A stretch of DNA of 64,000 bases from Candidatus Hermodarchaeota archaeon (GTDB lineage Archaea; Asgardarchaeota; Hermodarchaeia; Hermodarchaeales; Hermodarchaeaceae): contig JAEOTO010000006.1 of the NCBI GenBank assembly GCA_016839805.1, positions 1-64,000 of the forward strand, written 5' to 3'. The position numbers and the translations under genes were made by a program. How positions within the stretch are numbered: position 1 is the stretch's first letter; every line of letters starts with the position of its first letter. Below, piece after piece: positions 11,503 to 55,353 of this stretch. Under the pieces are notes generated by a model, which worked only from the letters and a program-made list of their open reading frames with translations, had not been told where the DNA came from and did not search any database.

Positions 11503-13002
11503 CTAGGCTTGCTGTTGTAGTGTCGTTTGAATAAACTCCGCTAGTTTGCTGATTTTGACCAGCTGCTCTTCCCCTGTCTTCATATTACGGACATTGACCG
11601 ACTTCTTTACAAGTTCTCGAGGTCCAACGATGACCGCAAATGGAATCTGTCGTTTACTAGCATCATCAAGATGTTTGGTTAGCGACCACGAAAAACCGTT
11701 GAAAATTGTTCGTATCCCCTCTGCTCGGAGTTGTGAGGCTATTTCACGGCAAACACTGAGTTGTTTCTTTGAAACTGGGGCTAAATAGAGGTCGGCAGGT
11801 GGATCTGGTGATGGAAGCAGCTTCATTTCCTCAGCAAGCTCTAAAATGACAGTCTCACCGAAACCAAATCCAGTTCCAGGCAACCGCTCTCCTTCAAAAA
11901 TACCGACGAGATCGTCGTAGCGTCCTCCACCTGCAATTGCTCGGGGTATTCCGCTCCTCCTGTCCCAAGCTTCAAAGACGATGCCCGTATAATAGTCAAG
12001 GCCACGAGCTATTCCTGCATCAAATTCACAAACATTCGTTATACCCAAATCATCCAATTGAGTGGCTAGCTGGCTTAGGGGTTTTAGAGCTTCTTGAGTT
12101 GCTTCATCTAATGCTAATTCTTCCATGGTTTGAAGAAACTCTTTTGGTGCCCCTCGAATCGCAGAGAAATTTGCAAGTTGTTCCGCTGCCTGCTGGGCTA
12201 TACCAATTTTTCTAAGGGTTTTGATGAGCGCCTCACGTTGGAGTTGTGGGAGGTTTGTTTTCAACTCATCAATTTGTTTTGAACGGGGAAGTTTGGGTTC
12301 TCCTTTTTGTTTTCCAATATAGAAATGACGGAGTTTGAGTGCAATTCCTTCCGCTTTCTTTACAGATGTACCTGCATTTCTTAGTTGATTAACGATGGAT
12401 TCTTGTAAGAGTTTTTCGCGGCGGTCTAATACACGGATAATATCAATATAATTAGTTAATCCCAGTGATTCGATGAAGCTTTGCATTAGGCGGCGGTCAT
12501 TGATACGTATTACGAAATCTTTGGGCGTGAAATTCAGCCTTTGAATAATTGCTGCAAGTACGTTAATGACCTCTGCATCAGCGGCAACATCTTCGGTACC
12601 CAATATGTCGACATTTAATTGCCAAAATTCCTTGACGCGTCCGCGCTGTTGGGTCTCATCTCGAAATACGCGTGAAATTGAAAACCACCGAATGGGACGT
12701 GGGTAATATTGCTGCTGAACCGCTAGCATCCGTGCAAGGGATGGAGTTGTTTCGGGACGTAGTACGAGTTTTCGGTCTTTACGATCTGTAACTTTGAAGG
12801 TCTCTTCAACGAGTGAGGGTCCTGATTTGAGCTGATACAATTTCAGTGGTTCCACGGTTGGGCACTCATACTCTATATAACCAAATAATTTTGGAATTTC
12901 ACGAAAGGCTCGGAGTATTCTGTCGATTTTACTATAGAGTTCAGGATAGAAATCTCGAAATCCACCCACTGCTAGCTCTTTTCCGCGTTTCATATTCGTC
13001 AA
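11503..13002 (-). CDS. hisS: Histidine--tRNA ligase with enlarged insertion domain
   Basis: GFRDF, LRPETT, motif 2 FRDETQQRGR..EFWQ, RGLDYYTG, GGGRYD, C-terminal anticodon-binding domain. Confidence 0.96.
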   Translation of the reverse strand: MTNMKRGKELAVGGFRDFYPELYSKIDRILRAFREIPKLFGYIEYECPTVEPLKLYQLKSGPSLVEETFKVTDRKDRKLVLRPETTPSLARMLAVQQQYYPRPIRWFSISRVFRDETQQRGRVKEFWQLNVDILGTEDVAADAEVINVLAAIIQRLNFTPKDFVIRINDRRLMQSFIESLGLTNYIDIIRVLDRREKLLQESIVNQLRNAGTSVKKAEGIALKLRHFYIGKQKGEPKLPRSKQIDELKTNLPQLQREALIKTLRKIGIAQQAAEQLANFSAIRGAPKEFLQTMEELALDEATQEALKPLSQLATQLDDLGITNVCEFDAGIARGLDYYTGIVFEAWDRRSGIPRAIAGGGRYDDLVGIFEGERLPGTGFGFGETVILELAEEMKLLPSPDPPADLYLAPVSKKQLSVCREIASQLRAEGIRTIFNGFSWSLTKHLDDASKRQIPFAVIVGPRELVKKSVNVRNMKTGEEQLVKISKLAEFIQTTLQQQA

Positions 13003-13047
13003 CTCATTTTCGTATTCTTCACTATTATCTATGTTGATAGTGAAAAA

Positions 13048-13204
13048 TGGTGCCGGGACAGGGATTCGAACCCCGACCTAAAGCTATCCGCATCCCATCT
13101 ATACTAATGGGATTCCACAGGCTTCAATGCTACCATTGCGCCTGGGTAATTACCAGTTTACACCTTCGGGAGCTAGTTATTATGATAACTAGCAATATCC
13201 CGGC
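13048..13204 (-). tRNA. tRNA-His(GUG) with three introns (8/9, 15/16, 37/38); CCA encoded
   Basis: Removing 13196-13165, 13157-13136 and 13114-13086 gives a 74-nt cloverleaf: GCCGGGA TG GTGT AATGGTA GCAT T GAAGC CTGTGGA GCTTT AGGT CGGGG TTCGAAT CCCTG TCCCGGC ACCA. Each junction has a 4-bp helix flanked by 3-nt bulges. Confidence 0.9.
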
Positions 13205-13378
13205 ACGGTGCCCCGGCACAAAGAATGGTTGAACAGAACTCTCCCAAAAAAACCTTTCCTCTCCTCCTCTTAAACCTATACAATATTACCATATCTACTA
13301 TACTGCCATGCCACTCTATCGGTGAATATAGAGCGGGAAAAATACGGATTTTAAGCGCGTTTGAAGGGAAGGATGGAG

Positions 13379-13687
13379 TTAGGCAATATCGATATTATCG
13401 AAAGGAAAGCCCAAATCGCCAAGAATTCCCTTGATATTATTACGGTGATCGCCTTGAAGAACGATGATACCTTCTTTGGCGCTACCACCACAGGCACATT
13501 TCATTTTTAGTTTCGTGACTAGTTCTGATAGCGATATATCTCGACTGTTTATTCCTTCGATAAGGGTGACTTCCCGTCCCCATTTTCGCCGCTCAACGCT
13601 CACTTTTATCCGCTGCTCTGTCTTCGCTAACTCTTGGCAGCGACAAATTTCTTTTGGTAAACTACAAATTGGACAAATTTCTGACAT
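13379..13687 (-). CDS. sui1: Translation initiation factor aIF1 (SUI1)
   Basis: CPICSLPKEICRC, RKWGREVT.IEG, LK.KCACGG, LQGDHR. Confidence 0.95.
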   Translation of the reverse strand: MSEICPICSLPKEICRCQELAKTEQRIKVSVERRKWGREVTLIEGINSRDISLSELVTKLKMKCACGGSAKEGIIVLQGDHRNNIKGILGDLGFPFDNIDIA

Positions 13688-55251: not shown

Positions 55252-55353
55252 AGCCCGGTAGTGTAGTGGTCAATCATCCGAGGCTCTGGGTCCGTCACTA
55301 TAATACGGTGGAGACACCTTGGGACCGCGGTTCGAATCCGCGCCGGGCTACCA
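55252..55353 (+). tRNA. tRNA-Gln(CUG) with a 26-nt canonical 37/38 intron (55290-55315)
   Basis: AGCCCGG/CCGGGCT acceptor (A1-U72), CGAGG CT CTG G|A CCTTG, TTCGAAT, ACCA; BHB helix CTCT/GGAG. Confidence 0.95.

Follow-up and report, generated by a model that had tools for sequence, protein, structure and literature searches.

tRNA-His with and without G-1

The additional guanosine at position -1 of the histidine transfer RNA (tRNA-His), called G-1, is among the most conserved identity marks in translation. To our knowledge, exceptions are documented only from one alphaproteobacterial clade and a few protists, and Thg1 with the Thg1-like proteins (TLPs) is the only enzyme family known to add G-1. 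Canonical archaeal and bacterial tRNA-His have C73 and G-1. The eukaryotic cytosolic tRNA-His has A73, G1:C72 and no encoded G-1, and there the G-1 is added by Thg1. G-1 on tRNA-His has been described as nearly universal (PMC3245924), and experiments have revealed histidyl-tRNA synthetases (HisRS) independent of it in Caulobacter (PMC3064791) as well as in Trypanosoma brucei and Acanthamoeba castellanii (PMC4338351).

Here we describe a tRNA-His gene and the adjacent HisRS gene (hisS) of Candidatus Hermodarchaeota archaeon (assembly GCA_016839805.1, family Hermodarchaeaceae, "Hermod" in what follows), both located in a stretch of 64,000 nucleotides (contig JAEOTO010000006.1, positions 1 to 64,000, "the window"). 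The pair resembles that of Caulobacter crescentus, from the alphaproteobacterial RCS clade (PMC3064791), in having A73, no encoded G-1, no detectable Thg1 and a divergent, covarying HisRS with an altered motif-2 loop. It also resembles the systems of T. brucei and A. castellanii, in which A73 and G1:C72 go together with the lack of both G-1 and Thg1 (PMC4338351, PMC3561963). The best explanation of our data is a tRNA-His/HisRS pair that works without G-1, to which we assign a probability of about 0.6; it would be an archaeal parallel to the Caulobacter and trypanosome cases (PMC3064791, PMC4338351), achieved with other residues.

A tRNA-His gene with three introns

The tRNA-His(GUG) gene was delimited by reading the sequence, by a comparative parse and by running ARAGORN on the spliced product. 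Its introns are of the archaeal bulge-helix-bulge (BHB) kind, and the parts of the gene are the following:

13048..13204, (-), tRNA-His(GUG) gene, 157 nt, with three introns
13197..13204, (-), exon 1, GCCGGGAU, positions 1-8, invariant in 16 genomes; joined to exon 2 in L013, L015 and L044, which have no intron 1
13165..13196, (-), intron 1, 32 nt, between positions 8 and 9, relaxed BHB
13158..13164, (-), exon 2, GGUGUAA, positions 9-15, invariant across all homologs
13136..13157, (-), intron 2, 22 nt, in the D-loop after A15, relaxed BHB, found in all 16 homologs with 21-25 nt
13115..13135, (-), exon 3, 3' part of the D-loop, 3' strand of the D-stem, 5' strand of the anticodon stem and the loop C-U-GUG-G
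13086..13114, (-), intron 3, 29 nt, at the canonical 37/38 position, canonical hBHBh', absent in L013, L014 and L015
13048..13085, (-), exon 4, A38, 3' strand of the anticodon stem, variable loop, T-arm, 3' acceptor strand UCCCGGC, A73 and CCA

In this parse G1 lies at 13204, the anticodon GTG at 13118-13116 and A76 at 13048. The 3' end reads ...GGTTCGAATCCCTG-TCCCGGC-A-CCA-TTTTT, the complementary 5' strand being GCCGGGA, with A at position 73 (13051), an encoded CCA (13050-13048) and T as the -1 base (13205). A73 and T at -1 had already been noticed in a reading of the sequence alone (hereafter the sequence-only reading), and both hold. So does the distance of 45 nt that it gave between the tRNA and the co-oriented hisS open reading frame (ORF), which opens with a TTG at 13002; the conserved ATG (12993) is 54 nt away from the tRNA.

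Spliced in silico, the gene gives a 74-nt product that ARAGORN calls tRNA-His(gtg), with the GUG anticodon in the 7-nt loop C-U-G-U-G-G-A (U33, the purine G37), a G1:C72 acceptor pair and a D-loop of 7 nt. Intron 3 has the canonical archaeal arrangement of two 3-nt bulges with a 4-bp helix between them, and introns 1 and 2 have relaxed versions of it. The minimum free energy structure of intron 3 consists of a 5-bp stem and a 4-bp helix, a 3-nt bulge, an 8-bp helix and another 3-nt bulge. The fold of intron 1 (z = -4.67) combines a CGGG(A)/(U)CCCG helix with a hairpin of 9 bp that covaries among homologs, and this intron is absent from three of the four genomes of genus g2. For intron 2 a GUGU/GCGC helix, an AAA bulge and a CUGG/CCAG hairpin were found; its junction can slide by up to 2 nt with the same spliced product. 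The exon boundaries are fixed because three genomes of the sister genus do not have two of the insertions.

The spliced 74-nt sequences are nearly identical in 16 genomes, differing only by compensatory changes in the T-stem between the two genera and by one D-loop base, and the intron hairpins diverge freely with their pairing retained. Judged by this comparison the gene is genuine and no chance match, because the spliced sequence is nearly invariant in 16 genomes and the introns vary with compensatory changes. The usual programs overlook it because of the three BHB introns: ARAGORN without introns and Rfam at the gathering score gave no tRNA in the window, ARAGORN -i also failed to call this gene, and Rfam in E-value mode gave a partial tRNA match of 19 bits whose anticodon loop contains a gap of 32 nt. 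The positions of the introns (8/9, D-loop and 37/38) and their BHB or relaxed BHB form are nothing unusual in kind among multi-intron archaeal tRNA genes. Such genes with non-canonical BHB introns were reportedly described by Marck and Grosjean in 2003 in Thermoproteales and others.

A single tRNA-His and a single HisRS

The assembly has 2.31 Mb and is 86.7% complete, and all the Hermod genomes are metagenome-assembled genomes (MAGs) with a completeness of 72-91%. A custom scan of the whole assembly, which required a GUG anticodon arm and a T-arm after it and allowed for a 37/38 intron, left the gene at 13048-13204 as the sole credible tRNA-His and gave no C73 tRNA-His elsewhere in the assembly. 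By BLAST a single tRNA-His type per genome was found in 16 of the 18 genomes of the family. Three "His" calls made by ARAGORN -i turned out, when parsed by hand, to be misparsed multi-intron genes for tRNA-Leu(GAG), tRNA-Gln(UUG) and tRNA-Phe(GAA). The hisS ORF was the only match in the genome to PF13393, and an archaeal RNase P RNA is present (173 bits).

Non-canonically placed introns, one to three per gene, are frequent among the tRNA genes of this genome, almost all of which encode CCA. Examples are found in the window at 55252-55353 (+) and at G000 C22:150034-150170, C13:18754-18894 and C22:165381-165496. An intron-containing tRNA-Gln(CUG) in the window was overlooked by ARAGORN in its default mode, which called no tRNA. 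ARAGORN -i also proposed a tRNA-Pyl(cta) candidate (G000 C22:264781-264858; Rfam tRNA 23.7 bits, below the cut-off) and a clearly spurious tRNA-SeC with an "intron" of 1193 nt.

A divergent HisRS

The hisS product has the catalytic core and the C-terminal HGTP anticodon-binding domain of a class IIa HisRS. The features of the gene that are needed here are:

11503..12993, (-), hisS, 496 aa from the conserved ATG (ORF back to the TTG at 13002), with PF13393 (174 bits) and PF03129, the anticodon-binding domain (67 bits)
12625..12663, (-), motif-2 loop, RDETQQRGRVKEF, from the translation and the alignment to 4RDX, 1WU7 and 3HRI
12964..12966, (-), Gly codon in "AVGGFRD", aligned to Arg7 of Thermus thermophilus HisRS

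The HisA (ARGLDYYTG) and HisB (GGGRYDD) boxes are present in the translation, and the best matches among solved structures are the HisRS of Thermoplasma acidophilum, T. brucei and Trypanosoma cruzi. Orthologs with 65-93% identity were found in 17 genomes of the family. Their public names are inconsistent because this HisRS clade is so divergent: "ATP phosphoribosyltransferase regulatory subunit", "HisS family protein" and "hypothetical protein" are all in use (P0049, P0050, P0099). The first of these names would imply HisZ, the regulatory subunit of ATP phosphoribosyltransferase, an identity that we rejected given the anticodon-binding domain and the fact that this is the sole gene of the HisRS family.

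Motif 2 reads R-D-E-T-Q-Q-R-G-R-V-K-E-F, compared with R-A-E-R-P-Q-K-G-R-Y-R-Q-F in T. thermophilus. The translation and the alignment to the T. thermophilus enzyme thus confirm the motif given by the sequence-only reading and its assignment of T and K to the equivalents of Escherichia coli R116 and R123; in addition, Q118 is kept and Y122 is replaced by V. The roles of the residues equivalent to R116 and R123 have been described (PMC4357726, PMC10100707). In T. thermophilus HisRS the G-1 phosphates are held by three basic residues, Arg7, Arg115 and Arg122, of which Arg7 contacts the 5' phosphates of tRNA-His (PMC4357726). The contacts made by motif 2 in that enzyme (PMC4357726) and the residues found at the same places in Hermod are:

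Glu in Hermod, T. thermophilus Glu114, contacts A76
Thr in Hermod, T. thermophilus Arg115, two salt bridges to the G-1 phosphate
Gln in Hermod, T. thermophilus Gln117 (E. coli Q118, the reported C73 reader), motif-2 contact to the backbone of the acceptor 3' strand
Arg in Hermod, T. thermophilus Arg120, contacts C74
Lys in Hermod, T. thermophilus Arg122, one salt bridge to the G-1 phosphate

The equivalents of Glu114 and Arg120 are therefore kept, and at the three basic positions of a canonical G-1-dependent enzyme the Hermod protein has Gly, Thr and Lys, so that only the third is basic and two of the three contacts to the G-1 phosphate are lost (Arg7 to Gly and Arg115 to Thr). The insertion domain, which in 4RDX clamps the acceptor stem, is longer here and cannot be aligned to other HisRS, and the HMMER match is split in two stretches.

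Distribution among Asgard archaea

The sequence-only reading had proposed a survey of positions 73 and -1, the motif-2 loop and Thg1 across Asgard genomes. For positions 73 and -1, 400 genomes were scanned with a pattern, to which targeted fetches and a covariance model from 17 genes without introns were added; the result was a strict dichotomy. In 40 genomes, belonging to families f1, f4, f15, f16, f19 and f25, tRNA-His has A73 and, in the 38/40 with a readable 5' end, T or A at -1. The other 34 genomes, from families f5, f6, f8, f9, f12, f17, f18, f21, f23, f24 and f29, combine C73 with an encoded G-1. Among the 74 genomes surveyed none had both types, except for one bacterial-looking gene in G080. 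Within Hermod A73 is invariant in 17 genomes, the -1 base being T in 15, A in one (L012) and G in none, and the pair is conserved in 16-17 genomes with the tRNA gene directly before hisS.

In a quick IQ-TREE phylogeny the HisRS of families f1, f4, f15, f16 and f19, of about 500 aa, form one clade (SH-aLRT 97). Their motif 2 can be written as R(D/N)ETxQ(R/K)GRV(K/R)EF. At the place of Arg115 they always have Thr; at that of Arg7 most have Gly, Ser, His, Pro or Gln, and only f4 has a basic residue. The canonical Asgard enzymes have RY(E/D)xPQxGR(Y/R)REF, with R or K at the Arg7 equivalent in nearly all. Outside Hermod the nearest database relatives of the clade are labelled Heimdallarchaeota or Heimdallarchaeaceae. 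The tRNA type therefore covaries with the HisRS clade, A73 without G-1 going with the altered motif 2 and G-1:C73 with the canonical HisRS, and the idea of a co-evolved pair put forward by the sequence-only reading is borne out. A further case is family f25 (L164 / L177, G144), which has A73, T at -1 and no Thg1, with a HisRS of 476 aa that is not part of the Hermod/Heimdall clade. The motif 2 of this enzyme, FRYDEPTRGRYRQF, has Thr where Q118 would be, like that of T. brucei. The combination suggests a second origin of the A73 state or a replacement of the enzyme.

The tRNA-His of three to five genomes of family f9 (genus g10) was located neither by the 37/38-intron pattern nor by the covariance model R1, and what looked like one in G179 proved to be a tRNA-Leu within a tRNA cluster of bacterial appearance. 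Two other genomes of f9 have G-1:C73. When the Hermod tRNA-His was used as BLAST query, the matches outside the family were merely to the T-arms of other tRNAs. Two contigs stand out: L146 (G080:C162, family f16) carries a bacterial-looking tRNA-His with G-1:C73 and without the CCA context typical of Asgard genes, and L168 (G179:C14, family f9) has a tight bacterial-style cluster of five tRNA genes. Both are probably contamination of the MAGs. Full-text searches of the literature gave no paper on tRNA-His identity in Asgard archaea.

Comparison with the known systems

With the canonical archaeal and bacterial pair the Hermod pair shares the fold of the enzyme, HisA RGLDYY, HisB GGRYD, motifs 2 and 3, the GUG anticodon, G37 and the RNase P RNA, but it has A73 with T or A at -1 instead of C73 and G-1. 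The Caulobacter tRNA-His differs by its G1:U72 pair and an extra U20a, and its HisRS by Gly118 (PMC3064791, PMC4338351). None of these features was found in Hermod, which has G1:C72, a D-loop of 7 nt and the Q118 equivalent, and whose changes are instead D/N114, T116 and V122 together with a longer insertion domain. The Hermod system belongs to a different domain of life, the Archaea, and has an independent origin.

The T. brucei HisRS is similar in its motif-2 loop of prokaryotic length and in the lack of basic residues at the equivalents of T. thermophilus Arg7 and Arg115, and differs in having Thr at the Q118 position and in keeping R at 122/123 (RRR). At 204 bits it was among the best solved-structure matches of the Hermod HisRS. 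A special kinship was considered and dropped, since the canonical Asgard HisRS scores equally (201-204 bits to both Asgard types); by these scores the trypanosome enzyme is a functional analogue and no special relative.

The sequence-only reading had described the identity elements of this pair as being of eukaryotic type. This is right for A73, which like G1:C72 and the lack of an encoded G-1 is shared with the eukaryotic cytosolic tRNA-His, but not for the enzyme or for the route to G-1, as no Thg1 was found in Hermod. In eukaryotic HisRS the motif-2 loop is longer and Q118 is replaced by Ala-Met-Thr (PMC10100707), whereas the Hermod loop has prokaryotic length, no Ala-Met-Thr insert and the Gln retained. 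Moreover, the scores against human HisRS are 105-111 bits for the Hermod and Heimdall-type enzymes and 226 bits, over the full length, for a canonical C73-type Asgard HisRS. On these comparisons the Hermod HisRS is not eukaryote-like.

Proposed histidylation without G-1 and its alternatives

The G-1-independent pair would work as follows. Transcription of the tRNA gene would start at a promoter of its own, the three BHB introns would be excised by the archaeal splicing endonuclease and ligase, and RNase P would cut the leader at the normal +1 site. Because of this cleavage at +1, the mature tRNA would start at G1, with an acceptor stem of 7 bp, A73, the encoded CCA and nothing at -1. The sole HisRS of the cell, coded by the neighbouring gene, would charge this tRNA by way of other features, presumably its GUG anticodon, A73 and its acceptor stem, which might be read by the remodelled motif-2 loop, the N-terminal strand and the insertion domain. 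Among the three mechanisms offered by the sequence-only reading, G-1 independence fits the data best.

Several points weigh against it. Part of the canonical pocket survives, given the positive charge retained at the equivalent of E. coli R123 (K/R) and the conserved Q118. Position 116 is non-basic also in T. acidophilum and in several G-1:C73 Asgard HisRS, and because of this variation the Thr found there is suggestive rather than diagnostic. The replacements of R116 and R123, used as evidence by the sequence-only reading, are thus present but weak as an argument, as members of the clade with the same tRNA keep R at 123 (two A73 lineages). Besides, every genome is an incomplete MAG and might still encode an unrecognised enzyme that adds G-1, and it is from the sequence that we infer both the 5' end of the mature tRNA and its charging without G-1.

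Such an enzyme is the basis of an alternative in which G-1 is added after transcription opposite A73, by a protein outside the Pfam Thg1 models or by a Thg1/TLP encoded in unassembled DNA, and HisRS uses its 5' phosphate. The retained K/R and Q118, the incompleteness of the MAGs and the near universality of G-1 (PMC3245924) would all agree with it, but the search for Thg1 does not. The Thg1 N-domain (Pfam) was found in 0/19 Hermod genomes and in 0/91 genomes of all the A73 families (72 of them non-Hermod), and the C-domain in 0/19 Hermod genomes, while the same search detected Thg1 in 16 other Asgard genomes and in the control genome. Hence neither form of the extra G-1 was found here, be it encoded opposite C73 or added by Thg1, since the gene has T at -1 and A73 and no Thg1 was detected. 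Archaeal TLPs, moreover, add U and not G opposite A73 (PMC3245924), and two of the three contacts to the G-1 phosphate are gone from the enzyme. We regard this explanation, which includes the eukaryote-like addition of G-1 contemplated by the sequence-only reading, as unlikely.

Another possibility is that RNase P cuts one nucleotide early, guided by a U-1:A73 pair (and G-2:C74), and that HisRS reads the 5' phosphate of U-1 on an acceptor stem of 8 bp. It depends on the two bases of the leader next to the gene:

13205..13206, (-), leader bases -1 (T) and -2 (G), with the potential to pair to A73 and C74; the usual bases ahead of tRNA genes throughout this genome

Of the 16 Hermod tRNA-His genes, 13 have leaders whose T-1 and G-2 match A73 and C74, the K/R at the R123 equivalent could hold a 5' phosphate, and in bacteria a -1:73 pair is known to shift the cleavage by RNase P (PMC3245924, PMC4338351). 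Against this, the -1 base is T in 18 and A in 8 of 26 tRNA genes of this genome, "GT" leaders are common there, and ten other tRNAs also have T-1 opposite A73, so that this pairing alone cannot shift the cut. RNase P generally prefers U at -1. Nor is the pair conserved, with A at -1 in L012 and in several A73-type relatives of families f4, f15, f16 and f19. Judging from these leaders, T at -1 is the default for the tRNA genes of this genome and no adaptation of tRNA-His. U-1:A73 as a special feature, also suggested by the sequence-only reading, is not supported, and early cleavage appears even less probable than an added G-1.

Finally, it is very improbable that the gene is a minor or decaying copy and that a working canonical G-1:C73 tRNA-His lies in the missing ~13% of the genome, for while the assembly is 86.7% complete and tRNA genes often remain unassembled, the spliced sequence is nearly invariant with compensatory T-stem changes over two genera, 16 genomes yield only the A73 type, the sole HisRS belongs to the clade that covaries with A73, and the only mixed genome in 74 is the one with the bacterial-looking gene.

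Surroundings of the gene

Three further elements flank the tRNA-His gene:

13246..13257, (-), AAAGGTTTTTTT, putative BRE/TATA element for the tRNA gene, 28 nt before the upstream acceptor-like copy
13211..13217, (-), degenerate upstream copy of the 5' acceptor strand, GCCGGGG, only in homologs carrying intron 1
13043..13047, (-), T5 run immediately downstream of CCA; genus g1 has T5, genus g2 T4

The upstream copy accompanies intron 1. Together with a "CGT" leader (tgtGCCGGGGcaccgt) it occupies 13211-13223 (-), 13 nt upstream of the real 5' end, and it lies at the distance from the promoter where the tRNA begins in relatives without intron 1. Possibly it was left behind when the intron was gained, or it is a structured leader. 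We rejected it as the true exon 1, as this would put C at position 8, the next base being mostly C, and as the copy varies at positions 3 and 7 and the downstream one is invariant. The putative BRE/TATA element is kept in both genera at an equal distance from the first acceptor-like sequence.

The T5 run is likely an archaeal terminator, and a TATA-like box (GATAATAG) about 30 nt before the ATG of hisS is conserved within the genus. The co-transcription of tRNA and hisS considered by the sequence-only reading is for these two reasons doubtful, and separate transcription units appear more likely. Their close linkage is specific to Hermod; in families f19 and f25 the two genes are 4-9 kb apart, and in f4 they are found on different contigs. 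Just upstream of the tRNA there is an ORF of 102 aa (13379-13687, (-)) that by eye resembles the translation factor SUI1/aIF1, with a Cys-rich N-terminus and a conserved C-terminal half. This identity, if right, would set hisS and tRNA-His among translation genes.

Implications

Because standard tRNA finders overlook a gene with three introns, annotations of Asgard MAGs may wrongly report that tRNA-His is absent. The Hermod HisRS and tRNA-His are also a natural candidate for an orthogonal pair. As a G-1-independent system the Asgard pair would represent a third, archaeal solution beside the alphaproteobacterial and protist exceptions, with its own HisRS clade and its own changes in motif 2. 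The A73 state spans at least six Asgard families, including lineages labelled Heimdallarchaeota. Heimdallarchaeota are usually placed closest to eukaryotes, and the finding bears on when the "eukaryotic" A73 arose. A tRNA-His with A73 and without G-1 might predate the split of Hermod and Heimdall, and eukaryotes might have received A73 from such an Asgard ancestor, a scenario that we consider a long shot. If it were true, the non-templated addition of G-1 opposite A73 by Thg1 would have come later, as a eukaryotic remedy required when a canonical HisRS that depends on G-1 had taken over.

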